Positions 7,995 to 49,599 of a DNA stretch of 64,000 bases are shown here, in pieces. Location: positions 120,900,001-120,964,000 of the forward strand of contig OZ024742.1 of assembly GCA_964016885.1 (NCBI GenBank), read 5' to 3'. The notes beneath the pieces are model-generated. The model searched no databases. It was not told the origin of the DNA and was given only the letters and a program-made list of their open reading frames with translations. Both the position numbers and the translations under genes were made by a program. Each line of letters starts with the position of its first letter. Position 1 is the first letter of the stretch. The stretch is from Eledone cirrhosa. Its lineage: Eukaryota.

Positions 7995-8032
<38 letters not shown>

Positions 8033-9054
8033 TCAGACCATATTCATACTGTCTCTTCTTACTAACTAAATAGTTTTATTATATGCAGATTCACTGTTAA
8101 GATATAATTCTTCAATTGCACACCCAAATATACTTGTTCCATAATTTTGTAATCAAGTTTCCAAAAATGCTAAATATTCTAAACTGTATTCCATCCCCAG
8201 CAATCTTTAGATTCTCATTATCTATATAATCAAGTGTCCAGCCAGGATACCAAATGAGGAGGGGAAATGGACCCTTTGATCTCTGGTGTTGGTGTTCTAC
8301 ATGAACTGAGCCAATACACTGTAAAGTGGTTGGTGATAAGGGCATCCAGCTTGCCAAACAAAGGATTGGACAGACCCATCAGCTGTTTTGAAAGATAAGA
8401 CCGTTTGTAAGCAACTGCCTGGGAGATCAGTAGTCCCACTTCAGTACTGACTCGGGCTATGTAGTCACATTCTTGCTGGAATGCAAAGCAGGCGTTTAAC
8501 AATTAGAGGTGAACCCTGTATATTAGTCAACCCTCAGCAAAACGCATGTACATATCCATGACAATCCTGGATAGATTTTAATGACTTAATTGCCTTTGTA
8601 ATACTCAGTTTATATACACAATGAAGTTTAAACTAAGAGAAAAATGTTCTAATAGGCTAACTGGTCCCAGATATAATCTGCGTTGAAACCTTCAATGGTG
8701 TCCCAAATTCTTAATGGATTATAGGACTCACCACTATCACAAAATTCCTATTATGACAACCTCCTTGCATAGAGTTCGTCTCAACACACAGCAAAGTGGT
8801 ATTTTACCTAAAGTGAATGCAAATAAGAATATAGAATATTAAATCATATATACATTATTCCTAGCTTATAGATTCTCATTATCTATACAATCAAGTATCC
8901 ATAAGAAACTGAACTGTTACTGGTGTGGTGTAACAATATTCTTCAGACAAAACCAACAAAATAATTTCTCAGGCTTATTCTAATTTGATGCATATTTTAA
9001 TGTTCAAACAGAATATAAATCATTTTCTTACTCATTTATTAATTAATCTATCTA

Positions 9055-9300
9055 TCTAGGGCAGGTAAAATTCACGAGTTCCACCCAGAGGTCTGTCCTT
9101 CATCGCTGCCATGTCGTGTCTCCCAGAGACCAGTGTATTCTTATCAATATATCAACCTCGGTCTCCCTCTTCTAGTGTGTCCGTGTAAGGGCTCCCACAG
9201 GAGCACTGAGTGCATTGTCAACTGAATGTCAGTGAGCATGTCCAGCTAACCTCAGTGTTACTTTCAAGCTGACTTTTGGGAGGCTCCTGTACAGCTATTC
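9055..9300 (-). mobile_element. RTE-like LINE 3' fragment
   Basis: Minus strand reads LRLAGHAH...LLWEPLHGHTRRGRPRLIY, typical of the RTE ORF2 end. Confidence 0.6.
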
Positions 9301-12300
9301 AAAAACAGCATTTCATCCTAACATTCAAAAATAGTTAAGACCCCATTCTTAATACACCCAAATTGTTAATTTCATAATTTAATCAATACATTTTTCTTTC
9401 TCTCTTTTAAATATGAAAAGGGAAAGCAGAGGATGACAATAAAATGATTGGATCCTTGATGAAAAGGAAATTTAAAACGACAGGCCAAAATTAAATATAA
9501 GCATCAGGTTTTATCAACCAAGTTGCATTAGGAAAAGTTTGAAGCTCAGTAATTTTTTCGCAGAGTATTTTAAGTAATGTTCCAATCAACATAACTCTGA
9601 TAAACTTGGTGGTTTCTAAGATACCAGACTATTATAGACAGTATCCAAAATCCATGATAATTTTATGTAAGAATCATTGTTTCAAACACTAACTTAAAGA
9701 CTTTTATTCTTGATTATTAAAATGATTTGAATATCATAGGCAGTGTCTTTCATTAGAAATGCAGTAATGAAATTAGACATATAACAAAAGTTACTTAGTG
9801 TATTCCAACAAGGACTCTTCCACCAAAAATTAGCAATTAATTAACATTTACATTTTAAATGTGCCAAATATTGGTGTTATTTTTCCGCTGTTTATGCATA
9901 CGAGTTATCCCCCAAAACAATTGTAGCCTTAGAAAAAGAGGTGATGTTTTAATAGATGGCACTATTGCAAAATGAATGAAAATTAGATTCACAATTGCAT
10001 CCCTCACACAACTAACTTCATATACATAAATCTGATGTAATATTGTTATAAATTAATGAAAGTTCTGTAGCACTAATACCTTTAACAAAAAAAAAAAACT
10101 AAAAAAAATAAAATAAATCAACTGTTATGAGTACATAAACCCAATAAATTAATAACATCTGAAATGAAGATCCAGGCTGCATTCCTAATAGCTTTGAAAA
10201 ATCGTAATCATATTGATTAGATTCTCTTGTGCATTTCCTAACAAAGCAGTTAAGAGTAGCAGGATAACATATCTTGAACAGCTATAGTTACTTTGTTACC
10301 CAGCCCCAGCAGAAATACAAAGAAAAGGAAACACTAGCAAATCACTATCAACATGTAAATTCAAAGAGAAGGTAGGAAAAAGAAAGCAATTTTCCTCAAA
10401 AGCTATCACAAATAAACTTTTTGTGAGTGATTAAGCCAATGCATGCTATTTTTTCCACTAATGCCCCAGATAATCAATAAAAATGAGGACAAATTAGACT
10501 TATGTATGCCTGGATCAAAATTTGGCATATATCATGAATATAAAACTACTGAAACATCACTTGTATATTACAACAGCTGTAGTGGGGGATGGGGTGATTA
10601 AATTGCTTTGAAATAAGACTCCAACACTATAGTAATATGGCTAAAGTTCTATCAAGAAACCACAAAATAGAAACTTTACATAGTGGCAATTGTCATAATT
10701 GGGAATGAACAAAACCAACTAGCCTCAGTACAAGATTCTGCACCACAGGGATATGCATGTAGCTGGAGCAGAATTCTAGCATGGTACATAATAGTGATAT
10801 TGCTATACCCTTTTGTTACTCCTTTAAGAATGACAACAGATGAGAAGCAAGGTGCTATTAAAGAAATTCACTAGGATGAAAATTGTTTTAAAATAAGTAC
10901 ATCTAAATGAAATATACTGTATTTGTACAAACCAGAAAATGAAACATTTAAAATGGTACATGCACACTAGCTTTTCATATATGTGAAAATACAGAAAAAG
11001 ATTCCCTAAAGTAGGTGGTGATATAATAAAAGCATCCAAGTGTGCTGGTCCCACATTAAGACAGCATAAAAATTTATGGCTTAGATATCTGCAATGAGCA
11101 AAGCTTCAGAAGTTACTAAGTTGGATTTACATTACAGTTTAAATTTATAATACCAAGGATGAAAATAGATATTTCAGAGAGTTCCTCAACCAAGAAAATG
11201 AATTGACCATAAATCATACATCCCAACAAGGACATACTGAGAAGGTGACTAACATTAAATGGTATAGTCATAAGCTAAATAGAACAAAAGCAGCCATGGC
11301 AGATGCAGACAAAAGACATGAGATCATAAACATCAAATTTGTGAGACTGAAGTTTTGATTGAGGGAAAGGGATCAATTAAACCATCTGAGCAAAACTAAG
11401 TTTATAAAATATCTAAAGCTTCACTTAATTTTAAATTGTAGAATTCCCAGTCACATTAAATGTACTTGACACAATCATGATTATGGCTTAATTTTATACA
11501 ACTACAATGACTTAATCCATGCTGAATGAAATTGAAAAAGCTGAAAAACTAACAAAATATTTAAAAAAAAAAGAACCTTTTTATTTCTGCCATAATACAG
11601 CAATTAGCTGAAATGAAGAAACACTAAAAGACCATTACCTTTATTACTTGCAGTGCTTCAAGGGTTCACCAAGCCTGAACAGCAAGGGAATAAATTATTG
11701 TCAACATCCCCAAGAATTGCTAGTGCTTAACAAGTAGCAACATTGCTTAAAACATTACTATTAAATTAAGTTGACAAAAACGGCTGGTTTACCTTCGTAA
11801 GAAAATGTGTGTACACACATTAAAACTGTACTTTAAACACATTAAACAATCAATGGAAATGACAAATTCTATTTGCACATGCAATGTTCTTGAAAGAATT
11901 GACAGCAAATCACTTATAGGCCATTTGAAACGTCACACACAATATAGAAATATTTCAATTTATAATATAGCTTACAAAACTGAGCCTAATATATGGTTAC
12001 TGAATACTTGAATTTATGTTAATTTAATTAAATTACTGCTGTAACTTGGAATCCGAAATAACCACTACTGTATACACTGCATAATGCAGAGAAACATCAC
12101 TACTTACCTTTTTTTTAGAAAAAAAAAAAAAAAAGAAATTTGATTGTTAATTTTCAAACAGATTTTCCTATCAAAGCCAAATCTTCTTCAGTGACATAGT
12201 ACATTCTCCATGAATATTCAGCAGGAGCATAATTGTAATTTAGACTTTCAAAAGTGCAATTTTTTTCAGCCATCTTCAGTATTTTAGTATAAGCTCTCTA

Positions 12301-13995
12301 ATGGGGGGTGTATGAAATATGAACCTCAAAGCTGAAAGACATCCACTCCTAACAAATCCATTTTCAAAGAAAACAATATAAATTTCCAGTGGTTAATAAA
12401 TCTCAAGATTATAAATATCATCTAACAGCCTCAAATTTACTTTAGCCAAGTCAACATTCAGCAAACAACCTATTTTATGTCTAAATTGCCAAGATTTAGA
12501 ATTGACCAAACAATTTGGTATATACACTTAACAGAAATTTTATATTTATACTGACCAATTTTCACTTCTATTTTCAATGCCCATTCAAAAATTTATGTAC
12601 TTCTTTGATAAGCTTCATTAGAGTATGTAAATTAAGTACTGCCATCTCCTTCATTCTTAACATAACAGTCAGCTTTGTATCCAAAGTGTCGTGATATGTA
12701 ATGTAATGAGGTGATGTTCTGTTCAGAAGGAGAAAGACAGCTTTAAGGAGTGGCAACACTAGTGATGGGTCTTCGTTAACAAATAGTTCTTCATCATTAA
12801 GTTTCTTACTTGCTGCTGCAAAAAGATCACAGGCAATATAGTTCGAATGTGATAATAAAAAAAAATATCTTGGCTCTTAGTGAGTTTAAATTTGAGCTGA
12901 AGTTATTCTGGGAGTAAAATTTTAGTAGATTGAAATAGAAAATGAAATGTGTTCAAAGCTGTAAGATTTGTCTTTTGTTACGAAGAAATGACTAAATATG
13001 CAACAAATTACCTTAATTTATTTTAGATGGATATAATTTTATCTTTAATGCATGTTTGACAAATTACGAAAGGAAAACAAGTCTTGTCCTAAACAAGCAA
13101 ACAAGTAACCATATAAAAGCAGAAATTTAAAAATTATAAACATTGAAGTTTATTGCTACTATAAAAGGAAAGCGTTTTTGCCCTAAGATTCACCACTAAC
13201 TTTCATTCCAAACAATATTGCCAAGTTCATTTATTCATCTTATTCCATTTCAAATAAGGCACACACCCATTTCCACTAAAATCTCTGTAATGGGAATACC
13301 CAGAAGGAATAAAATAACCTATCAAAGCTAACCCCCCCACCCCTCCCCCACAAGTGAGGATCCAGTCAATATTTAACCAGAGCAGAGTATACTAATAGAT
13401 CAACTGTTTGCAATTGGGTCACCTAATTCTGCAAGAGTGTCAATGTCAAATTGGTGTGAATAATAACCACCAGATCCTTTTAATAAGTTTATTTAAAATA
13501 GAAAGTGTTACATAGTCTTACTGAACAGCAGTTTAGAGTGTAAAACCACAGGATTTCTTAACTTATTACGAAAGTTATAAAGAAAAAAAAAAGATATCAA
13601 TGAATTTTTAAAGGTGTGTTAAAGTGCTCCAAAGAACCTGACTTTTAGGAAGAACTGGAACAGAAGGATAAAAGTAACGGGAATGTTTTTAAATTCACAA
13701 AAAAAAAAAAACAAATGGCACAAAAAAAATATGTAAGTGCCTCATGAAAATTGATTTACTTCTAATCAAGAGCCCAAAGACTAATTCATATAAAATGAAA
13801 GTGATAAAACTTGCATTATAGTAAATTTAACTAATAATTTGAAATGAACTATTTTTAAACTAGTCTCACCAACTAAAATAAATTCAAAAATTAGAAATTT
13901 GTTTTAACAAAGCAAGACAAGCAAGAATATCCTATGTCAATTCAGTCTAAAATAGTCAGCAGTCAGCTAAATCAAAATTGGAATAAAAATGTTAC

Positions 13996-14280
13996 CCATC
14001 TGCTCGACTCCAAGCGGTCTTCTGGCTTCTTTACACAGCTAAAGACTTCTATCTTGGCATATCAAACCCATTTTCTCATTCCCACTTCTTAATTCACCAA
14101 CTCATTATCTTCATATTTTTTTTATTATCTTTAAAAATTATTTTTCTCATTTTTCTTAGCTTCCATGATTTTCATTCAGCCTATTCCGATTTTTCCTTCA
14201 TAGTTCATTCTTTCTTCACGTTCAATCCCTTATTTCAGAGTTCTTTCTTCACCAGCCCATTTCATTTCTTTCTTCATAAC
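13996..14280 (-). other. Candidate alternative AGAA-rich tra2 exon (encodes RYEERNEMGW*; predicted NMD or alternative last exon)
   Basis: Acceptor ttcttgtattgtataaag|GTTATG and donor GATGG|gtaaca. It is in frame with the phase-1 end of exon 9 and holds three TGAAGAAAGAA copies and about 13 AGAA motifs. Confidence 0.55.
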
Positions 14281-14413
14281 CTTTATACAATACAAGAATA
14301 AGTAACATTAATTGTTGGGGACAGAAAGACTGCAATCTACTTTTTACTCTTCATTTGCTCCTGGCTTGATAAAACAACAAAAAATGCTATAGATTAAGAC
14401 ACTCCCATTGATC

Positions 14414-14419
14414 TTTATT
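14414..14419 (-). terminator. Candidate polyadenylation signal of the productive tra2 last exon
   Basis: AATAAA on the minus strand ~235 nt past the stop codon, followed by a U/GU-rich tract (TTTTTTGTTGTTTT, ~14370-14385). Confidence 0.55.
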
Positions 14420-14651
14420 GAAAGTTGGTAACAGTATAGCAGGGAAATAGACAGCACAAAAAAAAAAAACTACAGCTACATGTTTGGTTCTGGCTATAGA
14501 GGGAAAGATATGATAAATTGTGGAAGATGCATTTCTGCCTTATAATTGCTCGGAATTTCCTCACAGGCACAAATATTGACTACACCATAATTATGTACAT
14601 TTATTGAAGAGCTGCTTTTTACTGTAGGCTCATCGCATAGGACAAAACATC

Positions 14652-14662
14652 TCAATAGTGAC
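14652..14662 (-). CDS. tra2: Transformer-2 homolog, exon 10 (last coding exon, R-H-Y-stop)
   Basis: Acceptor cccttttcctcag|GTCACTATTGA completes ...SFSPRHY*, like the vertebrate TRA2 ending YSPRRY*. Confidence 0.88.
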
Positions 14663-17383
14663 CTGAGGAAAAAGGGAAACAAAAAGAATCATGTAATAAC
14701 ACTGAAGCAACATAATAGAAATAGGTTGGTGTTAGCAGTTTTTTTTTTTGTTTTTTTTAAGGGATGTAAAACCTATTACATATTTAGTAAAACTACTGAT
14801 TTACTATGTTTACAAAATGTTTTAGTCTGGAATTCTCACATCACTGTATAATATATACACACATGCACGTGTGTGTACACACACACACACACACACACAC
14901 GTGTATATGTATGTGTGCATATATAAGGAATTAGGTAACTATTTTTCATTTCTGCAAAAATGACCACAAGCGATGAGCTCAGAAAACATGCGTTTCTTAA
15001 ATCACAGAGGAGTGAAATGCTTGGATTTAATAGGTAGCTAATTGTACCATTTAGAAAATTGTCTAGAAATTAAAAAATCCTAGACCTCTTTAGAAAATAT
15101 ATTTTAATGGAAGTAAACTATTCATACAACCAAGAAATAAAATAACGAAAAGCAGTCACTATCATCATGCAGGCCAAAAAAAAATCTAAATCAGCAAAGA
15201 TAGACCTGCAAGAAATATTCAGAAAACATTCAATTGTAGGTATGTAGCAAGAATCACACTTGGATGTGTTAAGTAAAATGTTGATCTCTTAATAGATAAG
15301 CTGAAAATGAAGATCCAACAATTGTTAGTAAAGCAAAGCACAAGAAATGTTTTTAAACAATGCACATCAAAAATAATAATAAGGGAAGACTTAAAAAAAA
15401 TGAATTTAATTCTTGATATTTTTTAAAATATTGAAAACCTTTGGAAGAAAATTGAACTCATAAATACTTAAATTATTTCTAATCATAAATTTTGATGGAG
15501 CTTCAATATAGACAGGGTTCAACAAAGATCTCAACAATCATTGAATGCTTTCAATTGCGTTTTGTTATTTTTAGCCCCAGATTAAAAATGTTTTAAATCT
15601 AATATATAACGCTGAACTCCCATAGAAAAATATATATATATATCCATATACAACAGCTAACTCCTATGAATATTATTTGATAGACTAAAATTCCCATTTA
15701 AAATATCAAAATCGAAAAAATGAAGGATGGGGGGGGGGGGGGAGAATTGAATGTTACACATTTGCAAATTTCATAGATTAAAACGACAAAAACGTTAGCA
15801 GTTACACAAGATTTTTTTTTTTAAATTAGCAAAGCTGCGCAAAAAGAAAATTTCCAGACAAGTCATTTCACATATATTTACAGAAATATATGAAATTAGA
15901 GTAATGGCTTTGACTGAGCAAGCAAAATACAAAGAGTGAAGACAAATTTTATGTGAAAATTTTTTATATTGAAATAAAGTGGAAACAAAGAACAAAGAAA
16001 AGAGAAATGGACAAGCTATTTATTTTAAAAAATGCGAGATAATTATTCTGGTTTACTGCTGTAAATTGCAAATATCACAATTTAGATAATTTTGCATTTA
16101 TATTAAACAGGAGCCAATTTTATAAAACCTCTTTACATTAAAACCCCTTCAATATGCCATGTATAGTTATTTTTGTTATGCCTTAGTCATTGAGGAAAGT
16201 AAGTATTCTGAAACTAGATGATTCATCCAAGGCACCCAAGGGCAGATTGAGTTGGCCACAATAAAATATGAAATGGAGGTTTAAAAAAAAAAAAAACAGG
16301 AACAAATACAAAGCATCTCGTCTGATGCTTCTAGCAATTTTATTGCTACTTTATTTTACTGTTGACCACAACAGGATTTTAGATGCAGAGAACACATTTG
16401 TCCTTCACTACCAAGTACCAATCTTCAGGCGGCTTTATCAGTTTTCTTTTAGCAGCTACAATTTGGTACATATTACATATTAGAAAAATCTTTCTGCTTA
16501 CTCTTCTGTAACATCTCTTTTTAGGGAAGAAGCTATATTTAAAAATGTAATTTAATAGTTTATTACTTGCATAAAAACCAAAACCTTCACTCTTTGCATG
16601 TATTTATAAACATACACATAACATTGAACTGTTGCGTACAATAGCATTATTTTAGCAATATTGTGATGCTAAAATACAAACTTCATTCATTACAAACCAT
16701 CAAATGGAATTTATTAAAACCTTCTGTTACCAAGGTGCCTCTCAAGTTAATACCAATGGCTTTAAAACATACACAACTTATAATTTACAAGGAATATTTG
16801 GTAAATTTATAAGATACAAAAACAAATAGACTATCCAACAAATACTGACATTGATTTTGCACAATCAAACCATTTTTATAAAGTGCACTTCTGTTGTACA
16901 AGCTTAATATCAAATCAGCTTGCATTTTGAGGTAACAGAAGCTATCATTACTAACCATATAAATTTGCAGAAACGTTGTCGGGTAAAAAAAACAGTTGAA
17001 TATCTTTTCTCCTGGCTTTACTATACAGAATAACAATTGTCATTTCCTATACCAAATTCTTGAATTGTAACTAATAAAACATGTCCTTTAATATTGTTAA
17101 ATTTATAATCCAGCAATTTTATGAATTAATCTAAAAATCAGAATTGGTTCTCTTGCCCCGACATCTAAGAACTAAATGCTGAATCAATGATATTGTAAAT
17201 AGTTCTTTTGATGTTTGTCTAATCTAGAAAAATAACCTATATAGTTCAGGCACATATGGTAACAATAGGATTTAAATAAAGGGTCCACTATAATTTACAC
17301 TGACTGATAAGCATTTCCAGAAATATTTCCATATGAAATACTTCATTTAGAATTGCCATGCGAGTTCAATGAAAACTACTTAC

Positions 17384-17472
17384 GAGGAGAAAATGATCTG
17401 GAACGGGATCTAGAGTAACGGTTTCCACTGCGCCGATAGTAAGGAGATGAAGAGCGTTTACTTCTGCCTTCT
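17384..17472 (-). CDS. tra2: Transformer-2 homolog, exon 9 (RS2 domain)
   Basis: tttttcag|...|gtaagt; encodes SEGRSKRSSSPYYRRSGNRYSRSRSRSFSP. Confidence 0.93.
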
Positions 17473-17582
17473 CTGAAAAATCAAATCAATTTTAGATATG
17501 AGAAACATAAATACGGAAATATTCAGCATAATGTATAAAAAGTCATGGTGTGAAAAAAAAAAAAAAAAAGAAAAACACTTAC

Positions 17583-17698
17583 GAAGTTGGCTTCCCTAAG
17601 TAAATACCAGGTGTTGGAGTATGAGCTCTTTCTGTAATGGAATAGTCAACCCTTATTCTTCGACCATCAACTTCAATTCCATTGCACCTATCTTTAGC
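17583..17698 (-). CDS. tra2: Transformer-2 homolog, exon 8 (RRM end plus linker)
   Basis: cttttag|...|gtaagt; encodes [38 protein letters not shown], containing the TRA2-diagnostic HTPTPG linker. Confidence 0.97.
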
Positions 17699-18193
17699 CT
17701 AAAAGAAAGAGAAGAAAAAAAAGGTTACATATAAATACAAGAAAGCTTTCACCAAGCCCAAACTTAGAGAACATTATACACAACTTTATTTCAAATAGTC
17801 ATTTTACTTTCATTTCCTAAATGTGTCATCACTGATTGGAGAACCACAACCTGTTTTACATTTCATATTTGGCATGTTATCTAGGGTTGGATGCCCTTAA
17901 TAATGCCAAACACTTTACAGTATATGCAAGGTGCATGTTAAACACCAGCACTACAACCATACAGTGTAGTAGCAAAAAGTACCTTTTTGCCTGTCACATT
18001 TAGTATCAGGAGGTCATCATATATATAATCAACCCTTCACTCTGTTGCTAACAGTAACACAACAACTTACACCGTCTCACTAACATTTTCAGTACATACA
18101 CCTCCACTGATATCAAGAGCTAGCTACTAATTTAGTATATTTTGGCCAAACATCAGTAGCATACAATTTTAATATACTAAAATGTCCACTTAC

Positions 18194-18253
18194 CTCCATG
18201 GCATTATGTGTCGCTCTAAAATACACGAAGGCAAAGCCACGTGATCTGCCAGT
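18194..18253 (-). CDS. tra2: Transformer-2 homolog, exon 7 (RNP1)
   Basis: cattttag|...|gtaagt; encodes TGRSRGFAFVYFRATHNAME (RNP1 RGFAFVYF). Confidence 0.97.
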
Positions 18254-19341
18254 CTAAAATGAAAAGAGAAAATGTTAATGCTCTTAAAATTACCCTTTGC
18301 ATTGTACTAAACACAAATTTTTTTTTACCTTGTAAAAGATTAATTAAAATACTATTTGTGCAGATCAAAATGTGTATACATATGGGTTTTCATAAGAAAA
18401 TTCTTTCAACCTTAGGGGAATAATTTCAACCCATTCATTTAGTTCTTGCAATTGTAAAATACCAAAGCACTTGAAACTGCCTATTTATACTTATTCATAT
18501 TTAAATGAAAGCAATTTTGGCCACTGCATTAGTGATTTCACTACATTAAAAGCTAAACATTGACATATCTAAATGTAAATTTTGTTTTCAGTGAAACTTC
18601 TTGCTATTTCTTAAAGTTACACATGGGGTGAACTTTGAACCAGATGCTTTAATTTTCAATAGTATAAACAATATCTATCAGTGGCAATGAAAATGGAATG
18701 AAAATGTTTATATATTCATCAGTCACCAAACAAAATATTGCCATAAACACGGACATTTAGGATGCTACATAATCCTATTTTACATGGTGATGGTGGAATA
18801 TAAATTTCAGATAAGTTATCACTAATACCAGTAATATAATGGACAAATACAATGGTATATCAAAGTTTTGCAAATCAAACATCAGATTCTGTTAAGATTT
18901 TAACTTTTATATAAGGAGGAAAAACAATAGTGCGGCAACATAAACATGCTAGACTGATTGTACTGGATATATAAATTGCATTTTTTTAAATTGAAATAAT
19001 CCAATTGGAAAATATTTCTTTACACGCAAATGAAAATGGCACATCGCTTGTAATCAAGTGAATTAGATGGTTAATAAGTTGACCAGGTATAAGTTGTGCA
19101 AATCCCTGGTTTGGTATATAGTAACTATATGAATGCTTTTTTTTTTTTTTAATTATATAGCAAATTTAATTTGCACACCATTGAATTGAAACAATGTATT
19201 TTAATCTAAAATATCTCAAGCATTAAACATCAAGCTAATTTATTAATTGCAAACAGTGTTATCAAAATATGCTATATACCAAATTTTAAATTGGAAACAA
19301 AGATGTTAATCAGTGTGTGGGAGACGGATATAAAATATTAC

Positions 19342-19470
19342 CTGTCTGTCATAGACAACTTGAACATCTTCAACTGGACCATATCGAGTAAAAACCTCTC
19401 GGAGATCTCTTTCTTGTGTATACAAACTGAGGCCAAAAACGCCAAGACACCGAGAAGGCTCAGGGTTGTC
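19342..19470 (-). CDS. tra2: Transformer-2 homolog, exon 6 (RNP2)
   Basis: cctttcag|...|gtaata; encodes [43 protein letters not shown]. Confidence 0.97.
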
Positions 19471-19631
19471 CTGAAAGGAAAAATAGTGAAGAAACTAAAC
19501 TGCTAACAAAAATATTGGAATTTTTCCTCAACTATGGAAAAAAATGTTTAAATGGTTTAAACCATTTTTTAAAATGGAAATATCCAGTGAGCCATGCTAT
19601 ATGAAGATTTGTAAAAATGGTGTAAGTATAC

Positions 19632-19662
<31 letters not shown>

Positions 19663-20966
19663 TACACAATAAGGCTACACAATTGAGCAAACAACAAATT
19701 ATGTAGTTTTACAAATTGTTAACAGTATACAGATTTCTGTTAACTATCAAGTGAAATTCTTTTAAATAAAGAAACATTTTTTTCCTGATAGCAATCATGA
19801 ATGAATTGATCATTCAAATATCCTAATGCAAGACCAAGCCCATATTACGATATTTCTTGAAAATTCTTACCATTGAAATCTACCATAAGTACTATAATGA
19901 CAAAAACAAAAAAAAAATATAAAAAGAAAATAAGTTGCTAATGCCATAAGATGTAGTTAGTGTATGTTTACCTCTCAATACATTACTACTTAAAACAGTA
20001 AGAGCACATCAGTGCATTGCACTTGATGCATACTCACGAATCAGGATCAATGCTTCAAAGAGCATAGGCCCTATAATTCTTTGAAATTCTAAAGCCATGG
20101 ATATTTTGTAAGTGTTCCAAGGATCCCCCATAACCTTGTTTTCTTCAATTTCACTTCCATACTCTGAAGTATGTTGACACCATTTTTCATTATTCACAAG
20201 TTGTTTTGAAAATATTGTTCCAATAAACTGTAAGTGAAACCAATCATATTCTTCTAAAATCTTCACTATATTCTCAGTTCCAATTATTTTCGCTAATCAT
20301 GTCCGCTTCAGCCATATTTGATGCACACATGAAAAAAAACGGTCATATTTATTAAAATTTGTGTCGTGACAAAATTTTAAGGGTACTGGGTTAGGGTTTA
20401 CTTTTTTGTTAGCATGCTTAACTGAGTAGTTAAGATAGCTAATGGTGAGTCACTATTCATTTAAAAGCCAAACAACATAAATAACAAATAGAAATAAGCA
20501 TTTTCCTTAAATCCATTAACATTGATGTTATTAAGATAAAGTAAAGAACTACACCTAATCAGACTGCACTTTTATATTTTCAGAAAACAGAATATGCAAT
20601 TGATTCAGTGTTGTATAGATATTCCACAACTGAAGTCAAATATATTTTAACTGAATTCAAAAGTATGATTGCAGCAGAGTTTCCATTTTCATACAAGAGG
20701 ACCTTACAACATTTTAAATGTTTGGCATCTGAAACCAATGACATGTATCCCTAGAGAAGCAAATTCAACCAGATTTGTTTCTGAAATTCTACACTGGGTA
20801 AAATGAAAACCAACAGCTTACTCAGCAACTGCTAAAGTGAAAGTTAGATTAGTCCACATGCTGGAATACCCTGCCAAGAATGTCTTGCCAGGCCTTTTTT
20901 CTTTTTTTTTTTTTAAGGAATGGGTTATAAGGAAAAGAAATAAAAAAAATGATATACCTCACTCAC

Positions 20967-21096
20967 TCGGCTGCCGCCAAACCTGCGTCGACTAGACATT
21001 GGAGATTTGCAATGGGTGCGATAGTAACCACGTCTTCTGTCATTGTATCCATCTCTGTAATAGTAGGGGGAGTAGCGTCCACGACTGTAAGAACGA
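20967..21096 (-). CDS. tra2: Transformer-2 homolog, exon 5
   Basis: ctccttgcag|...|gtgagt; encodes SRSYSRGRYSPYYYRDGYNDRRRGYYRTHCKSPMSSRRRFGGSR (SPMS-RRR motif of TRA2). Confidence 0.93.
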
Positions 21097-21286
21097 CTGC
21101 AAGGAGCAAACAGTACATACATGTGGAAATCTACTTAAAGACACAAATCATTAAATCTAACTAATATATTTATTTGATTTGTGTTTAAGAAAAAAAAATA
21201 TATATAATTTTAAAACAGACATTAAAACTAATTTTACAACCTACTCTTTTGGGGTGGGTGGGAGGGTTAAAAGATAAATAACTTAC

Positions 21287-21301
21287 CTCCTGCTTCTTGA
21301 A
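21287..21301 (-). CDS. tra2: Transformer-2 homolog, exon 4 (15-nt microexon, YSRSR)
   Basis: tttctttttacag|TTCAAGAAGCAGGAG|gtaagt; phase 2-2, frame-preserving RS sequence. Confidence 0.82.
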
Positions 21302-21420
21302 CTGTAAAAAGAAAAAAATATCGAAGCCTTAGTTTACTAAGATATTCATATAAAGTAATCAGATAATAAATTTACAAGTTTAAATTATTAAAATCAAATA
21401 AGATCAATAACAATACTTAC

Positions 21421-21492
21421 TATCTCCGTCTCTGTGAGTAAGGAGTTCGTGATCGAGAACGAGAACAATATCGCCTACTACGACTTCTTGAT
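21421..21492 (-). CDS. tra2: Transformer-2 homolog, exon 3 (RS1)
   Basis: catag|...|gtaagt; 72 nt encoding RSRSRSRRYCSRSRSRTPYSQRRR. Confidence 0.88.
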
Positions 21493-21580
21493 CTATGATT
21501 TTAAAAAAAGGTTAAATATTAGTTCCAAAAATACAAAAAAAGAAGTGGTTTTTAAAATGCTAGTGTAAAATAGGATTTAC

Positions 21581-21822
21581 CTTGATCTACTGTATGATCT
21601 CCTGTGTCTATGCTTTGATCGAGATCTTGATCTAGATCTGGAACGAGATGGCGAACGTGATTGAGATCTTGATCGGGAACGAGATCGAGAGGCTGATCTC
21701 TGCGAACGAGCAGATTTTGGAGTTGGAGACCTCGAATAAGAATGAGAGGCTTCTGACTTTTGAGAACCAGATTGGTGAGACTTTTCAGATATTTTCGATT
21801 CCCTGGATGCCGAACGGCTCCT
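21581..21822 (-). CDS. tra2: Transformer-2 homolog, exon 2 (RS1)
   Basis: cccattgttatag|...|gtaaat; encodes RSRSASRESKISEKS...RSRSRSRSKHRHRRSYSRS. Confidence 0.92.
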
Positions 21823-22184
21823 CTATAACAATGGGAAAATGGAAAAAAAATTAATACAATCTGATGAAGACTACTAGTTAGATGTAAACAATCTGGAATG
21901 GAAGAAAATGTCTAAAACCTAACCAACCTCCCCATTACTGATCTTTGCGACAATAATTATTAATGCCATCCTCTCAAATATTCAAATTATTAAAATCAAC
22001 TGTAGACAAAGTTTATTTTGCAACAGTAAAACCACTGCTAAAACAATTTACCTGACAAACGCAGTTTTTTGGTTGATGCTCCCCACTCTAGACTAATATG
22101 AACTTTCATATAATGGTTTTGTTGTGCGTTAAATAAAACTAAAAGTGGTCTTTGGTCTTTATAAGAAATTAAGTTTTGAGGTAC

Positions 22185-22220
<36 letters not shown>

Positions 22221-22775
22221 TTATTCGGTACTCCGGTATTGATGAAATTATCTCCCCCTTTTTAGGGGTGGTGAAATTTCAACCTTGTTAGCACTTCTAC
22301 ACCAGAAAATATTGCCTTAAGCATCGATAGTTATTCACCACCAGTTTTACATGTTTTTCCTTGCTAACATGAGCTTAGACGAGACGTTTTGAGGCAGAAT
22401 TGTATGCCAGAGGACCCTTTCTGAAAACATTCGTTTATATTTTTAAGGTAACGATTTTCGCTAAGCAGTGAAACGTAAACAAATACCACCGCCTGTGATG
22501 CTGAATACGAAGAGAAAAAACATTGTATAAATATGTGTGTGTGTGTATTTGAAGTTTCATTGCAGTTTCCGCCCACCAAATCCACTCAGAAAGCATTATA
22601 CATACAAGATATTGTAATTCTCATAACTCTAATAGATTTAAAACAAGGTGTTTTTTTTTTCGGGGAGCGGGGGATATCAATATGATGTTCGTGTTTCTAC
22701 ACAAATATTAAAAATATAAAATACTGCGCGAAAAATTTATTTATAGAAATGTAATTGCTTATATTTTACCGATTA

Positions 22776-22806
<31 letters not shown>

Positions 22807-22836
22807 TATAGGCGTAAAAGTAAATATGCCTTCATT

Positions 22837-23026
22837 GAGCTGTGTGTGTGTGAAGAGAGATATGTAAAATCGTGACCGCAGCGCCAAGCGGTTACGACTT
22901 GTGCCGAAACCGGTTGACGCCGCGGTTATGATTTTACTTATCTCTATAACCACTCGGCAAAATCCTCATGCATTGACTACTCCCACGATTACTGGTCTCC
23001 CCGAGGACCGAGCACATACACAGCTC
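22837..23026 (-). ncRNA. Unassigned structured RNA element in tra2 intron 1
   Basis: A 14-bp closing stem (22837-22850 / 23013-23026), a 43-bp hairpin (22856-22945) and a second stem (22953-23012). GC/CpG-rich island within an AT-rich intron. Confidence 0.5.
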
Positions 23027-25008
23027 GCTTGAATTTAAAATGTCATAATTTGTACTTGTCTGACACCATCAGCTGTTTCATCTTTTTTTTTTAACAATGT
23101 AAATGTAATTATGCAAACAAAATATTTATATATTTTATTTTAAATGCAGCTTTTAATCCAGGCAAAAACTGAAAACCGCCACACATAAAAGGTATGGAGA
23201 GGGTTAAAAATCCTGTCTCAATCGATTAGTGCCTCTCTACTTTTTCCCCGTCTACTTTACCAGATTTTCTAAACTTATTTTTGTCAATGCTTCCAAATTC
23301 AATATTACACCACCATCGATTTCAGTGGGAAATAATTATTTTTCGTTTCGTTTTGTTATTTCGAGCGCTTACCAATCAATCTTACCCTCGAATATACTTT
23401 TCCCCCGGGAATACGAACGGGAAGAGGGTAAAGAAAAAGCCGTGAGGAAAGGGCATGTCCAAGGCCAACATATATGTTTGTAAACAAGACTGATGTAAGA
23501 AATATTTAAGAAGAGTGAAAGAAAAATATCTACCGGAAAAACTTCCTGGTTTACGAACTGACAAGTATAAACTTGCACTGTACAAGTTAAAACGTGCCGT
23601 ATGCAAATAGTTATTTCAACCACATCACAAGCTTTGCCCACACAATTTCTACTATTGATTATATACAGGTATTTTACTAATTAGCTATGATCAAATAAAA
23701 TACAAATCGCTAGTACGGTTAAAATACAATTTAAGTAAGCTATCTGATTAGCTAAACCACATGAAACTACATCACAAAAAATAATCCAAAGTTTAGTGTA
23801 AATAAATGAAACATTTTTAGATATTTTCTATTAAATCATTGTAGGCTGTCATTTTTCATCCATTTTTCTATGCTGGCATAGGTTGGAAGGCGAGTCGTTA
23901 AAGACCAAAAGGACATTTAGGTAACAAAAATATATACTGTATACAAAAAAAAAAGTAAGAACTTGATGTTCTTTATACCAACTAACAAACAATATAAACG
24001 TATCTTAAAGCTTGTCTACTCAAAAGCACACGTAATATATGCAATTTTTCAGTTGTTCAATTTTGTTAAACGCATTCCAACTTATCCTTTAAGATGCGTC
24101 TATATTAGATTCAAAAATTTAATTCAAGTTTTCGACGCTTACATTTTTAGGACAGTTAAATTGGTAAAATATTTGTAGACTTTCTGTATAACAATCAAAA
24201 TAGTATTAAAGTGTTCATAAAAGTTACCAAGTGAGCGCCTTCAACATTTCCTATTATCTCTAAAATAAATAAAAAATGCCATTCTATTTTTCCCTTAAAC
24301 AATAAGGCACCCTTGCCCTCTTTTGTGTATTCGTTATTTCAACAAATACATGGTAGTATAGTCGACAAAAGTTGTTTTATATCCAGTCTTTCTATGTATA
24401 TCTATGATCTAAGATACTTCCACTGCCACTATGCGGCTTGTACGTACATGTACAACGAAAAACGATGGATAAGATAGACAGATACCTTTATAGTAGACAA
24501 TATTTATAAAATATTGAGCATACGATATATGTTTGTATAAATTGCTATCATAACTCTTCCGCTATATAACTATTTCAGTTACAACTATATCAGATCAAAT
24601 CGATTTTTTTTTTTAATTTCGGGTTTTCTAGCCTCCGATCTCTGCACATGGACAGTTTCTTTGCCGCCATAGAAATTAATGAAGGAAGCTTTGTTACTAC
24701 AATTTTAAATCTTATCACCAGTTCAATAATTACAGCTTATCTTACTGATTTAACACTATTATTTTTTTCTCTAACAACAAATATTTTTTTTAAAGACAGC
24801 GAACTAATTAATACATATACTAGTATATATATTAAATGTAGTTACGATTACTTCTAAATACCGATCTTAAATGCTAACATCTTTGAATTTCCGTAAAATG
24901 TGTCGACATCTACATTAATGTAACATACGCAAAAAAGAAATATTACAAGAAGCTCGAAAAAACATTTCAACGAATTTACAATCAAATAGTAATACAATTC
25001 GCATTAAG

Positions 25009-25014
<6 letters not shown>

Positions 25015-25076
<62 letters not shown>
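25015..25076. repeat. (GT)n microsatellite
   Basis: Direct dinucleotide run. Confidence 0.95.
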
Positions 25077-25090
<14 letters not shown>

Positions 25091-25724
25091 CATACACTGT
25101 ATGACGTTGGTGTCAAAAATGTTTTTTGTTGACTTCCAATTAAAAGCAAATATAACAAATGCCAAACGTTTGTTTCTAAAAGTAGATAGCAAAATCTAAA
25201 GGAACTGCAATTGAGATGAGAAGCCTTTAAAGCAACACGCGGTAGACTTCCCTTAAACATGAAAATAGGTAGAAATGGCGGTCAAGCGCCAACAAGTAGA
25301 AACTGCTCACCTAGCTTATTGTATTGTAACTTGCTACAAAATCAGACAAACATCGAAATAATTTAATCAAATGAAGTAGATATTTGTAGGAAAATTATGT
25401 AAATGTAGTCAGGGATAATAATAAAAAAAAAAGCAAAACATTGGATACTTAATATATAAATGTATTTAAAATGTCTAGTAAACGAAAAAAAATCCTATAT
25501 TGTTTTGATGGATGTGCTTATGCGTGAGAAAAAACAATTTATGCATCGGGTAGGTTTTCATCCGTAAATTGATGTTATTTAATAATGGCTACATGATTCT
25601 ACCAAAACACAAATTTGTACATACTACTTTCTTCTTTAGTGATAATTACATGAAATATCTAATAACATTGATATTCGTGTCGAAAACAAAAAAAAAGATA
25701 AATGCGTTATATTAAAATACTTGC

Positions 25725-25745
25725 CTCGTTTTCCTTGTCACTCAT
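25725..25745 (-). CDS. tra2: Transformer-2 homolog, exon 1 coding part (MSDKENE)
   Basis: AAAATGAGTGACAAGGAAAACGAG|gcaagt. The MSD start resembles TRA2 proteins; phase 0 matches exon 2; the donor is GC-type. Confidence 0.8.
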
Positions 25746-25939
25746 TTTGTTACTTTATATATATACTTTGGATTAATATGTTAAAAAATATATTCAAATA
25801 AAGTTTACTCTGCTGTTAAGGTGCAAAGTAGAAAAAAAATCCCCCAACGCTCTAATAACGAGCTGAGGTGACGGATAACTTTGCTTTTTTTTTTTTTTTT
25901 TTTTTTTTTCTTAAATACGTAGGCTAAGAAGAAAAGAAT

Positions 25940-26200
25940 CTAAGGTACGACTAATGAAGAGCATGTGCAGACAGAGACAAAATATGGCGTAAAATAATCT
26001 TGTTTCTTTACTACCTCCCACTTTCACTCCTCCTACTGCTTCTTTACTAACTACCTCTTACTATCACTCCTCCACTGCTTTACTACCTCTTACTTTTACT
26101 CACTCATTGCAACCACTCCTCCTTTTTACCTCGTTCTCGTTTCCTAGAATCTCGTACTCTTTATTCTTAAACCTATTCCTCTTCCCGCTCCTCGCATATA
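25940..26200 (-). promoter_or_regulatory. Probable tra2 promoter/TSS region with YY1-like site
   Basis: CGCCATATT at ~25981-25989 on the minus strand, ~240 nt upstream of the ATG. Further YY1-like sites lie at ~25272 (AAATGGCGG) and ~24663 (GCCGCCAT); CpGs are retained locally. Confidence 0.45.
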
Positions 26201-28199
26201 CACGTCACAAATTTGGCAGCTAAGTTTATGTGTATATACATGTATGAATAAACATATGGATATATATATATAAGTAATGCGTGTATATATATTATAATGT
26301 GTACGTATTCGTAAGCCAAAATAGCAGAGATGGGAGGAGAGGGTCCTAGCTACGCGTATTTGACAGGGAGCGGGAGAGTGAAAATAAATGCAATCTTATT
26401 AAATGTTGTTTCTATTGTTCAGTGTTACCGGAATTTGCCGAATTTTGCCGATTATTGTTTATACATACATATACAACATGTACAACATAAATGTTTAATG
26501 AATTAAATTTTTTTTTTAGAAATATACGACCACAATAATTTCATTGCAAGGTCGTAATATATTTCTAACTAAATATCGAAATAATGTAATAATATTCATT
26601 TTGTTTTGGTTTATTACTATTTCGCGCCGAATTCCTCTATATCTTAGGGCCACTATTAATTTACTGTTTGGTTTATCGGCCTTAGGGGATGAAAAATAAA
26701 TTAATGTAACTGATATTTGGACTTACTAATAGGAGTATGAAAACGAAACAAATAAAAGGCATTTAATAATAGATAAATTATATAGTCTAACTATCAACCT
26801 CATAAACTTAATTCCATCTCTCACTTGAGCCACCCCCAGCCCAAAAAAAGAAACACGAAAACAGACATTAAATATATAGAGAGAGAGAGAGAAAACGCAT
26901 TTAATAATGGTAGACGATTAATCCAACTACCAACCACTTAAACTGAACTCCATCTCTCCGTTTTATCATAATTTCAAATTATACGAAATTATTCCCTTTT
27001 TTTTTTAAATTCAAACTGGATATTTTTAGTATATTTTCAGTATGTATTACTAAGATATCTAAATATAATCGCCATAGATAAACGCTATATTTAATAAACG
27101 TATATTTTTACTCAATGTTTAACTTGCATTTAATTCATTCAGTTATAACCAGATATTTATAACTATAGACGTTGTGCATATGAAGAGATAATTATATCTA
27201 CATTGACGTTAATTTCAAAATGTGTGAAAAGCGAGATTTAAATGTGTTAATTATGAAAATAGTCAAGCTTTTAATTGTAACTGTTGGCTCGTTTGATATC
27301 TCAGGGGAGATTATTTGTAAAACCCAAGTAAAGACTTAGATGTAACTTATAACTTGTAAAAACCTTTATTTATTCAACCTGTTCTAGGTCTGCGTAATAG
27401 AAAATTCGTGAAGAAACATCCATGCCTTAGCGAATGACATTCAAGTATGTAAATCAGAAAGGAAACTTGCTAAATAATAAAAAAATATATAGAGAGAGAT
27501 AAATATACACGAGTGTGTATGATTGTGTATAGAAGATTATATTAATAAAAGGAATTCCAACTTTGTCTGATTTACCCGTTTTATTTACAATCCTTTAAAA
27601 TTTATAATGGTATGAGAACGAAATAGTATGGTAGAATATTAAATGTTAAGTGTTAATTGAACAAGTACTTTCATGCTTTCGTAATCTTCAGGTTCATATT
27701 GTGTGGTGACAGTCAAGTTTGCAATTTTCAACTATATATATTATAAAGTCTACGGTGCCGAGACCGGAGAGATCACAAATCAGGAAAAGAAGTAGACTAT
27801 ACATAATTCTATTTTCTGGTGAACGACTAGCGACCGAAAAGTGAGGACTTTTCCTTTTAAATCAAACGTGAAACTAATATATTCATTGTACTTCATCCTC
27901 TGTTGTGCCCCTCAGTCATGCAGGTTTTGTTTTTTAAACTATTGCATGCTCCGATGGATGTGTAATAGTATACATGAACGGCAAAGTGTATATGGACGGA
28001 GAGAGAAACTAGACATAAGAGGGATTGTGTGCAGAAGAAGAAATTGTGTTGTTACAGCCAGGTGATGCATATGAACGATAAAGCCATGGAGATTTAGAGG
28101 CCACATAAAATCCCTGAGATCTTCACCCTGATATGTCTATTCTTTAAGCATTTTGAATGTCTTCTTCTTCTTCTCCTCCTCATCCTTCTCATCCTCCTC

Positions 28200-37529: not shown

Positions 37530-40500
37530 ATCACTGACCTAGGGCTAAACAACAAGATCTCTTCACTCATAAATGACCTAGGCCTAAGTAACAAGATCTC
37601 TTTAACCATTACTGATCTATAGATAACTAACAAAATCTCTTTAACCATTACTAATCTATAGCTAAGTAACAAGATCTCTTCAACCATTACTCACCTGAGG
37701 CTAAGCAACAAGATCTCTTCACTCATCACTGACCTAGGGCTAAGCAACAAGATCTCTTTAACCATTACTGACCTAGGGCTAAGCAACAAGATCTCTTTAA
37801 CCATTACTGACCTGGGGCTAAGCAACAAGATCTCTTCACTCATCACTGACCTGGGGCTAAGTAACAAGATCTCTTCACTCATCACTGACCTAGGGCTAAG
37901 TAACAAGATCTCTTTAACCATTACTGACCTGGGGCTAAGCAACAAGATCTCTTCACTCATCACTGACCTGGGGCTAAGCAACAAGATCTCTTCACTCATC
38001 ACTGACCTAGGGCTAAGCAACAAGATCTCTTTAACCATTACTGACCTGGGGCTAAGCAACAAGATCTCTTTAACCATTACTGACCTGGGGCTAAGCAACA
38101 AGATCTCTTCACTCATCACTGACCTAGGGCTAAGCAACAAGATCTCTTCACTCATCACTGACCTAGGGCTAAGCAACAAGATCTCTTTAACCATTACTGA
38201 CCTAGGGCTAAGCAACAAGATCTCTTCACTCATCACTGACCTAAGGCTAAGTAACAAGATCTCTTCACTCATCACTGACCTAGGGCTAAGCAACAAGATC
38301 TCTTTAACCATTACTGACCTGGGGCTAAGTAACAAGATCTCTTCACTCATCACTGACCTGGGGCTAAGTAACAAGATCTCTTCACTCATCACTGACCTGG
38401 GGCTAAGCAACAAGATCTCTTCACTCATCACTGACCTGGGGCTAAGCAACAAGATCTCTTCACTCATCACTGACCTGGGGCTAAGTAACAAGATCTCTTC
38501 ACTCATCACTGACCTAGGGCTAAGCAACAAGATCTCTTTAACCATTACTGACCTGGGGCTAAGCAACAAGATCTCTTCACTCATCACTGACCTGGAGCTA
38601 AGCAACAAGATCTCTTCAACCATCACTGACCTGAGGCTAAGCAACAAGATCTCTTCACTCATCACTGACCTGGGGCTAAGTAACAAGATCTCTTCACTCA
38701 TCACTGACCTAGGGCTAAGTAACAAGATCTCTTCACTCATCACTGACCTGGGGCTAAGCAACAAGATCTCTTCACTCATCACTGACCTAGGGCTAAGTAA
38801 CAAGATCTCTTCATTCATCACTGACCTGAGGCTAAGCAACAAGATCTCTTCACTCATCACTGATCTAGGGCTAAGCAACAAGATCTCTTCACTCATCACT
38901 GACCTGGGGCTAAGCAACAAGATCTCTTCACTCATCACTGACCTGGGGCTAAGCAACAAGATCTCTTCATTCATCACTGACCTGAGGCTAAGCAACAAGA
39001 TCTCTTCACTCATCACTGATCTAGGGCTAAGCAACAAGATCTCTTCACTCATCACTGACCTGGGGCTAAGCAACAAGATCTCTTCACTCATCACTGACCT
39101 GGGGTAAGCAACAAGATCTCTTTAACCATTACTGACCTGAGGCTAAGCAACAAGATCTCTTCATTCATCACTGACCTGGGGCTAAGTAACAAGATCTCTT
39201 CACTCATCACTGACCTAGGGCTAAGTAACAAGATCTCTTCACTCATCACTGACCTGGGGCTAAGCAACAAGATCTCTTCACTCATCACTGACCTGGAGCT
39301 AAGCAACAAGATCTCTTCAACCATCACTGACCTGAGGCTAAGCAACAAGATCTCTTCACTCATCACTGACCTGGGGCTAAGTAACAAGATCTCTTCACTC
39401 ATCACTGACCTAGGGCTAAGTAACAAGATCTCTTCACTCATCACTGACCTGGGGCTAAGCAACAAGATCTTTTCACTCATCACTGACCTAGGGCTAAGTA
39501 ACAAGATCTCTTCATTCATCACTGACCTGGGGCTAAGTAACAAGATCTCTTCACTCATCATTGACCTGGGGCTAAGCAACAAGATCTCTTCATTCATCAC
39601 TGACCTGAGGCTAAGCAACAAGATCTCTTCACTCATCACTGACCTGGGGCTAAGCAACAAGATCTCTTCATTCATCACTGACCTGAGGCTAAGCAACAAG
39701 ATCTCTTCACTCATCACTGATCTAGGGCTAAGCAACAAGATCTCTTCACTCATCACTGACCTGGGGCTAAGCAACAAGATCTCTTCACTCATCACCGACC
39801 TAGGGCTAAGCAACAAGATCTCTTCACTCATCACTGACCTGGGGTAAGCAACAAGATCTCTTCAACCATCACTGACCTGAGGCTAAGCAACAAGATCTCT
39901 TCACTCATCACTGACCTGGGGCTAAGTAACAAGATCTCTTCACTCATCACTGACCTACGGCTAAGTAACAAGATCTCTTCACTCATCACTGACCTAGGGC
40001 TAAGTAACAAGATCTCTTCACTCATCACTGACCTGGGGCTAAGCAACAAGATCTCTTCACTCATCACTGACCTAGGGCTAAGTAACAAGATCTCTTCATT
40101 CATCACTGACCTGAGGCTAAGCAACAAGATCTCTTCACTCATCACTGACCTGGGGCTAAGCAACAAGATCTCTTCATTCATCACTGACCTGAGGCTAAGC
40201 AACAAGATCTCTTCACTCATCACTGATCTAGGGCTAAGCAACAAGATCTCTTCACTCATCACTGACCTGGGGCTAAGCAACAAGATCTCTTCACTCATCA
40301 CCGACCTAGGGCTAAGCAACAAGATCTCTTCACTCATCACTGACCTGGGGTAAGCAACAAGATCTCTTTAACCATTACTGACCTGAGGCTAAGCAACAAG
40401 ATCTCTTCATTCATCACTGACCTGGGGCTAAGTAACAAGATCTCTTCACTCATCACTGACCTGGGGCTAAATAACAAGATCTCTTCACTCGTCACTGACC

Positions 40501-48850: not shown

Positions 48851-49599
48851 CATCTAAACAAAAAATTCATAAATTCGTAAAAGACCTAAAATACTAATTT
48901 TTCTTTACTAAATTAAAGACCATGGTTTTATAGGGCAAGAATACTATCCCTTGAAATACCTCTAGTTTATTACTGGTACTTATTTTATCAAAGACTCAAT
49001 TAACCATTAAACAAAATAACCATAAGCTTAAAGCAACAAGTGAAATGTGGTACCTTTTAATTCAAATTAACTGTATTTGTCATTCCCCACCCCCCAAAAA
49101 AAATCATTTTTTGGCAGACATTCTATGAGGGTGGAGTGGGGGGCATAATCTTTTAAAAAACTTAATCCAGCCCAAATTTTATCCCATCTTTCAAGGGGAT
49201 GAAAGATGAAAATAAATAAGATACCTCTGAGCCTAATCACTGAAATCAAGACTAATCTTTGCATGTCATTTAATCTCATACGTTAGTATCTATAGCAACA
49301 TACTTTCATCTGAAAGGTCACAAGATATCTAAAATATGAGATTAAATTTCAATGAGATACCAAGACAGGTTACATACAAAAAGTTAATGATGTTATGATT
49401 ATAAAGATACAATCAACATAATAAACACTTGGAAGCCCAAACCTCAGTATTTGATTATTCCAGTCACATCACATAGGTTGAACCCTTCCCCATGAAAATA
49501 CATGAAAAAACAGCATGCACCTTATCTACTGGCTTACAAAATATGTTACATTGTAAATGTTATATACAAAACAAAGGTGCATCCCTCCCCCCCCCCTAT

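Follow-up and report, generated by a model that had tools for sequence, protein, structure and literature searches.

The tra2 gene of the octopod Eledone cirrhosa ends in two alternative forms that share a single exon-9 donor, and the distal of the two competing acceptors, at position 14280, is real and yields a major form of the mRNA. The GAA-rich block that opens at this acceptor is a part of the terminal exon entered via an alternative 3′ splice site, and is not a cassette. Splicing to it exchanges the RHY tail of the protein for RYEERNEMGW, while RS1, RRM and RS2 stay whole. Why should a splicing factor keep a second end of this kind? We put at roughly 0.5 the probability that Tra2 acts on its own GAA cluster to favor the distal acceptor, so that a degron-like tail and/or a longer 3′ UTR would lower the amount of Tra2 by a route other than junction-dependent NMD. 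Positions refer to the window, the whole 64,000-nt stretch of DNA that was analyzed.

The tra2 Gene and Its Two Last-exon Forms

Translation of ten coding exons on the minus strand (Table 1) gives a 294-residue RS-RRM-RS protein. A Pfam RRM_1 match falls in exon 6, the peptide of which is 100% identical to Tra2 records of Octopus and Argonauta, and the product has the marks of the Tra2 family, a single RRM between two RS regions together with an HTPTPG linker.

Table 1. Features of the tra2 locus in the window.
Feature	Position	Strand	Description
tra2 gene	14652..25745	-	10 coding exons; RS1-RRM-linker-RS2
tra2 coding exons 1-5	25745-25725, 21822-21581, 21492-21421, 21301-21287, 21096/21054-20967/20958	-	
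tra2 coding exons 6-10	19470-19342, 18253-18194, 17698-17583, 17472-17384, 14662-14652	-	
tra2 exon 9	17384..17472	-	phase-1 donor at 17384, common to both last-exon forms
Proximal last-exon form	14402..14662	-	strong acceptor 14662, RHY-stop, short 3′ UTR; joint 17384->14662 in 4/4 runs
Proximal poly(A) signal AATAAA	14414..14419	-	U-rich tract downstream; lost on distal acceptor use
Distal acceptor and coding tail	14249..14280	-	AAG/G at 14280, RYEERNEMGW-stop; joint 17384->14280 in 3/4 runs
GAA/AGAA-rich block	13996..14280	-	285 nt; candidate Tra2/SR-protein splicing enhancer
Donor-like GT	13990..13995	-	5/9 U1 match; no use seen
Candidate distal RNA 3′ ends 13941, 13936	13900..13941	-	19 and 14 molecules, X24; U/GU-rich tract follows
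Long unspliced 3′ UTR that extends the GAA block	9250..13995	-	X21 contig 16, X1 contig 2

Four of 24 listed runs (X24, X21, X1, and X13) were aligned to positions 8100-24900, and 15 of 46 joints and 24 of 436 loose ends were listed. X24 is raw stranded RNA-seq of a relative, of which about 2% was read; X21 shares 98% of its words with the window. X21, X1, and X13 were taken as RNA because their contigs contain exon-exon joints. Joints into 19900-19930 were discarded as A-rich artefacts.

The proximal acceptor (CAG, 16/17 pyrimidines) and the distal acceptor (AAG, 11/17 pyrimidines, with the stop codon at 14251-14249) lie 382 nt apart, and distal use drops these 382 nt, and with them the proximal poly(A) signal. 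In X24, 96 junction reads join 17384 to 14280 and 90 join it to 14662; the corresponding contig depths, distal versus proximal, are 342.9 versus 122.9 in X21 and 136.6 versus 76.6 in X1. The distal isoform accordingly makes up 52-74% of the junction signal in three runs. In X13 the proximal joint alone is found among the matches listed, and therefore use of the distal acceptor differs between samples. One donor, two acceptors, no onward junction among the joints listed and separate 3′ ends (14402 versus 13941/13936, resting on one run, X24) characterize this event as an alternative 3′ splice site with an alternative last exon.

The initial annotation had predicted this arrangement, a phase-1 exon 9 followed by two competing acceptors with their short tails, and all of its coordinates check; both junctions exist, and its fallback claim of an altered C-terminus is borne out by the distal junction and the RYEERNEMGW tail. 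Its description of 14280 as the weaker acceptor holds for the sequence but not for use, which at least equals that of 14662 in three of the four runs.

Exon 5 also varies: its alternative acceptors (21096/21054) lie 42 nt apart and its donors (20967/20958) 9 nt apart, the latter adding VSE. Joints at 21054 and 20958 are among the matches listed, and the lengths parallel isoform differences in O. sinensis. Intron 1 (25725) opens with GC (GAG/gcaagt), and exon 1 is read in loose ends at 21824 (X1, X13), which supports the GC-AG junction. Outside the gene, the window contains a tandem array of about 11 kb (37660-48880; unit about 42 nt, long open frames on both strands), in which blocks near 39.8-43.7 kb and 43.7-48.2 kb represent a higher-order duplication. 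Fragmented Rep/PIF1 helicase frames at 55884-60446 (-) are, as we take it from their motifs, Helitron-like.

The GAA-rich Block and Its Conservation

The purine-rich stretch behind the distal acceptor is as first described: 72% purine, with 13 AGAA and 29 GAA, its 3′ boundary at 13996 being only a guess from sequence. The GAA count is the maximum over all 285-nt windows on both strands of the 64-kb window. The AGAA count compares with a mean of 6.7 in 10,000 mononucleotide shuffles (p = 0.009), and is exceeded by one simple repeat near 31056 (20 AGAA). The 11-mer TGAAGAAAGAA occurs at 14276-14266, 14251-14241, and 14218-14208, and these three copies, noticed initially, proved to be the only ones in the window on either strand. 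A cluster of the factor's own binding motif is one property of a poison exon, and alternative inclusion, seen here as both joints in three of four runs, is another. The CLIP consensus of Tra2beta is AGAAGA, several sites being needed to activate target exons (PMC3240583). An origin from a repeat or transposon was rejected, as the block stretch has one match in the 3.0-Gb genome in a search that skips simple repeats. Rfam returned 22 matches at E<=1 over 8000-27000, all under the gathering score and none within 13996-14662, and a non-coding RNA was set aside for want of a match at that score.

A third property of poison exons is conservation above neighboring coding and UTR sequence; a lack of conserved GAA clusters in related species had been named at the outset as evidence against the switch, and the block is conserved. 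On contig pieces of X1 and X13, both close relatives, X1 has 10 substitutions in 413 nt (2.4%) over 13868-14280, compared with 163 in 1943 (8.4%; Fisher p = 4e-6) in the distal UTR and 18 in 244 (7.4%; p = 0.004) in coding exon 2; its proximal exon has 1.5% and RRM exon 6 has 3.1%. In X13 the rate over 13900-14662 is 3.3%. As the coding part of the block amounts to only about 30 nt, the constraint acts on RNA. The vertebrate Tra2b poison exon is likewise more conserved than some coding exons (PMC11791180).

A second conserved, GAA-enriched block lies in intron 5 at 19927-20486 (-), shortly before the RRM exon, with X13 substitutions of 2.9% against 10.2% in coding exon 2. It contains a candidate cassette at about 20305-20038, with an AAG acceptor that is preceded by an AG-free run and by a CTAAC (near 20394), a TTC/gtgagt donor, an in-frame stop at codon 3, 6 AGAA and 17 GAA. 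No joint using this cassette is among the 15 of 46 listed, and intron 5 is apparently retained in an X21 contig (19670-20986, depth 158) and in X13 (depth 96). This block could be a true poison exon of tra2 or a regulated retained intron. In intron 1 of tra2, no 200-nt window has 10 GAA.

3′ Ends and the Long 3′ UTR

RNA ends of the proximal form cluster at 14402 (8 molecules, depth 38, X24), 12 nt past the AATAAA that, with its U-rich element, had been assigned to this form. For the distal form, candidate ends lie at 13941 and 13936, upstream of which a hexamer scan found no canonical hexamer in the window sequence. An internal AATAAA at 14126 had been suggested as the signal for an altered C-terminus; the hexamer is present, but among the RNA-end clusters listed none lies near it. 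Transcripts also continue from the block into a long unspliced UTR, which reaches 11590 in X1, beside an AATAAA at 11585, and 9250 in X21, at the start of a repeat. Proximal-form transcripts reading through 14402 (X21 contig 17, X1 contig 3, X13 contig 9) gain the same long UTR, and therefore the UTR difference between the two forms is not absolute. Apparent skips in the X13 UTR (11757-11839 and others) were rejected as unaligned divergent stretches, because X1 and X21 run through them. The distal UTR (-) further holds AATAAA at 11645 and 11585, a strong donor-like site at 12108 (8/9) and an acceptor-like site at 11673; among the matches listed, none uses 12108 or 11673.

Second Tra2 Tails in Protostomes

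Three homolog searches and three cluster look-ups supplied the Tra2 C-termini, of which a table of 69 named protostome species or genus entries, most with few isoforms sampled, was made by hand. The canonical end is a short one in Y (RRY, RHY, RGGYY). Behind the same intron, a homologous-looking second tail was found in 40 of the 69 entries: 18 are exact, in two reading frames (EER in 15 and xKKE in 3, within 8 residues of the junction), and 22 have a degenerate form. Chance produced the motif at 5 of 1588 random AG/G sites. None of 37 vertebrate records with the anchor has a second tail (46 examined, 9 without the anchor); the cnidarian and the hemichordate record, one each, end in RRY. It is also missing from 4 annelid, nemertean-RRY and priapulid entries (few isoforms sampled); because most entries had few isoforms sampled, an entry without a second tail does not amount to absence.

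The octopod tail RYEERNEMGW is present in Octopus and Argonauta protein records. The EER form occurs in oysters (RCEERKMKRCIG), abalone (RFEERNMK...), chiton (RWEEERK...), horseshoe crabs (RLEERNKG), and termites (RYDEERGIG), and the xKKE form in Ruditapes (RLKKENRR...) and ticks (RRAWKKE...); tails of Hymenoptera and butterfly read RFESRGIG and RIETRSKG. By comparison of peptides, EER and xKKE are two frames of one GAAGAAAGA word, and therefore these peptides pointed to an RNA motif as the object of constraint. An SPR-stop isoform, found in scallops, Littorina, Pomacea, Folsomia, Anabrus, and Tubulanus, may be the third frame of the same word, which is a guess. Both tails are annotated within one species in O. 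sinensis, Magallana, Haliotis, Ruditapes, Limulus, Apis, Periplaneta, and Schistocerca, and RefSeq already contains second-tail isoforms of many species.

These likenesses suggest that the mollusc and arthropod tails are homologous to the octopod distal exon and that the event is probably older than the mollusc-arthropod split. That split dates back over 500 million years. TGAAGAAAG-type words directly behind the distal acceptors, SPR-stop species included, would mark homology at the RNA level.

In freshwater mussels (P0191, P0204) the second tail is a tandem array of FEERKMK/FEDRKMK-type repeats, a hint that the GAA element has been amplified locally in unionids. A metagenome scan for tra2 3′ ends gave 80 loci, nearly all distant RRM matches; the one read, L002, is an RRY-type mRNA that ends about 80 nt past the stop.

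C-degron-like Ends

What could a second tail do to the protein? Six C-degron patterns (APPBP2 Rx2-4Gx0-3, RG/KG, AG/WG/PG, GG, terminal R, and E at -2; PMC7458402) were compared with 61 distinct non-Y tails of at least 5 residues, post hoc, after the tails had been seen, the patterns being loose and derived from human ligases. They fit 28 of 35 motif-class tails, 0 of 7 tails starting with RK, which are likely intron read-through, and 10 of the remaining 19; the rate expected from Markov models of the octopod exon is 30-36%. Counted by clade majority, 9 of 11 clades fit (p about 0.001-0.003). Related species repeat tails, and insects account for 13 of 31 tails in one such count. For RYEERNEMGW the match is to the APPBP2 pattern in its broad form; the optimal RxxGx/RxxGxx is not matched. 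Seven of the 35 motif-class tails, including all three spider tails, miss all six patterns, and the commonest canonical ends, RRY and RHY, also fit a C-degron class (R at -3) that is not among the six. By sequence pattern, and post hoc, the second-tail form thus resembles a C-degron-bearing isoform of the kind addressed by CRL2-APPBP2/KLHDC3/FEM1 and CRL4-DCAF12.

A Proposed Feedback Model and Its Alternatives

An outline of the preferred model is as follows: Tra2 bound at the GAA cluster would promote the weak AAG acceptor at 14280; distal splicing would yield a full-length Tra2 with a predicted destabilizing tail and, at the same time, commit the mRNA to later 3′ ends with a longer 3′ UTR; Tra2 output would then fall via the protein tail, the UTR or both. 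There are precedents for parts of this scheme in the fly: the female exon of dsx contains repeats on which Tra/Tra2 act, and Tra2 restrains its own expression at the level of splicing (PMC3245913). Against feedback specific to Tra2, GAA enhancers are also bound by SRSF1, the consensus of which is similar to that of Tra2beta (PMC3240583). In addition, among the three contig runs the tra2 exon signal is deepest in X13, the run for which no distal joint is listed, and a simple rule of more Tra2, more distal splicing does not predict this; contig depth is, however, a poor gauge of expression.

A wider and more speculative version, offered tentatively, would place in protostome tra2 a protein-level poison exon that predates the mollusc-arthropod split. 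Tra2 in excess might select a GAA-rich terminal acceptor of its own transcript, and the full-length product would carry a C-degron at its end, leading to cullin-RING proteolysis instead of NMD. The RNA motif would stay constant, with the frame and the degron class (RxxG, terminal R, E at -2) turning over.

It is possible, if somewhat doubtful, that the event is instead an ancient isoform switch regulated by other SR proteins or by tissue state, providing a different working Tra2 tail with no feedback loop. The abundance of the distal form speaks for such a switch. The peptide persists in many insects, even over several orders (RFESRGIG, RYDEERGIG, RCEARGVG), with the motif itself degraded (ESR, RTRG), a pattern that is also compatible with a functional protein isoform. 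Crayfish tra-2 isoforms differing in their last exons show unequal sex bias (PMC7363937). On the other hand, mollusc and chelicerate tails vary freely in frame and in length (1 to about 50 residues), and about 250 non-coding nucleotides are as conserved as an RRM exon.

The initial annotation had favored another reading, in which the block is a 285-nt cassette closed by a GG/gtaac donor at 13995 that splices onward, so that the stop becomes premature and the mRNA is subject to NMD. The GT does lie, as claimed, about 250 nt past the RYEERNEMGW stop (253 nt as measured), the size resembles that of vertebrate Tra2 poison exons (Tra2a, 306 nt; PMC3240583), and three stronger donor-like sites are present further down the UTR (13012, 12810, and 12108). 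The predicted junction from 13996 downstream was nevertheless not seen: no joint (15/46 listed) and no loose end (24/436 listed) falls there. Such a form might be rare in steady-state RNA because it is degraded by NMD, and contigs drop rare forms. Yet 13995 is read straight through by contigs of three runs (X21 contig 16, 9250-14280; X1 contig 2, 13868-14280 and on to 11590; X13 contig 9, 13900-14662), and in X24 the depth is still 89 at 13941. It is also the weakest donor: it agrees with the U1 consensus at 5/9 positions, and the 10 tra2 donors scored all agree at 6-8/9. Conservation reaches about 100-130 nt beyond it, but the 3′ ends at 13941/13936 also explain this flank. With no exon junction more than 50 nt after the stop among the joints listed, and with the distal isoform abundant, the reading appears unlikely; of the earlier interpretation, the competing acceptors, the conservation of the block and the altered C-terminus stand, and the cassette closed at 13995 as an NMD target is not supported.

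Less probable still is that the block, bound by Tra2, serves mainly as a 3′ UTR element for poly(A) site choice or mRNA fate, with splicing secondary. It is contained in the read-through proximal transcripts too, and the donor-like site lies about 55 nt upstream of the 3′ end clusters. U1 inhibits nearby polyadenylation; U1 at the unpaired 13995 site could possibly inhibit the ends at 13941/13936. However, these clusters come from one run, and in every clade showing the motif only a few bases separate it from the acceptor, which is where a splicing enhancer would be expected. That the block is chance purine-rich UTR sequence behind a leaky cryptic acceptor is barely credible: its AGAA excess over composition is modest (p = 0.009), but it is single-copy in the genome search with no Rfam family at the gathering score, and the RNA junctions with their high use, the high conservation and the matching tails in two phyla largely refute this reading.

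Relation to Known Systems

The poison exons of vertebrate TRA2B (Sfrs10; exon 2) and TRA2A resemble the octopod block in being about 300 nt long, AGAA-rich, and mostly non-coding (PMC3240583, PMC11791180). They belong to the same gene family and are, like the block, plausible targets of Tra2 feedback, the comparison being one of descriptions. They are, as these sources describe them, cassettes between exons 1 and 3 that trigger NMD (PMC3240583, PMC11791180), whereas the octopod event is an alternative acceptor of the terminal exon that leaves RS1, RRM, and RS2 intact, is abundant and shows no downstream junction among the joints listed. The distal exon acts like an SR-type autoregulatory exon, yet does not show the cassette structure with a downstream junction by which a poison exon is defined. 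A further comparison is with SRSF2/SC35, an SR-type factor that activates its own terminal 3′ splice site via enhancers in a conserved last exon; those events follow the stop codon and are unproductive (PMC2831310). In octopod tra2 the choice is made ahead of the stop, with a different protein end and the loss of a poly(A) signal as its consequences.

The female exon of Drosophila doublesex is a terminal exon with a weak acceptor. Tra2-dependent repeats and a purine-rich element inside it select this acceptor; dsx is a downstream target that requires Tra (PMC3245913), whereas the octopod target would be tra2 itself. Retention of the M1 intron in Drosophila testis is negative autoregulation of a protostome tra2 by splicing, but there removal of an intron is repressed (PMC3245913), while the octopod proposal involves activation of a terminal acceptor.

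The same isoform-level event is very probably present in Cherax CqTra-2A/B/C (PMC7363937) and in RefSeq records of O. sinensis (isoforms X1 versus X2) and Apis (X5 versus 252/253). In the available text and in RefSeq these 3′-end isoforms are given as lists, without the GAA element, homology across phyla or a role in feedback (PMC7363937). Titles and abstracts covered, which mostly exclude subscription papers, include none that concerns a GAA-rich last exon conserved in the tra2 of invertebrates, and nothing in the covered literature concerns its frame-independence, deep homology or role in feedback; a remark on the Hymenoptera FESRGIG may be missed. A text search finds no "tra2" in PMC4379411 and neither "invertebrate" nor "Drosophila" in PMC12632421 and PMC11791180; the accessible parts of PMC8298206 and PMC10066108 add nothing on a terminal tra2 exon. 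Splicing events shared across phyla are rare, a case in SRSF5 having been called a rare example across kingdoms (PMC4379411).

Biological Meaning

Tra2 feedback is documented for vertebrates, through poison exons, and for the fly testis, through intron retention. The octopod finding points to a third arrangement at the other end of the gene, spread over molluscs and arthropods, the second tails of which are hidden in annotation as minor "isoform X" differences. Honeybee, beetle, oyster, and crustacean systems, in which tra-2 RNAi is routine, suit direct testing. A terminal-exon switch would give meaning to the 3′-end tra-2 isoforms met in studies of sex determination, and, if the degron reading is true, splicing-factor homeostasis would have an additional route that is missed by NMD-based screens.
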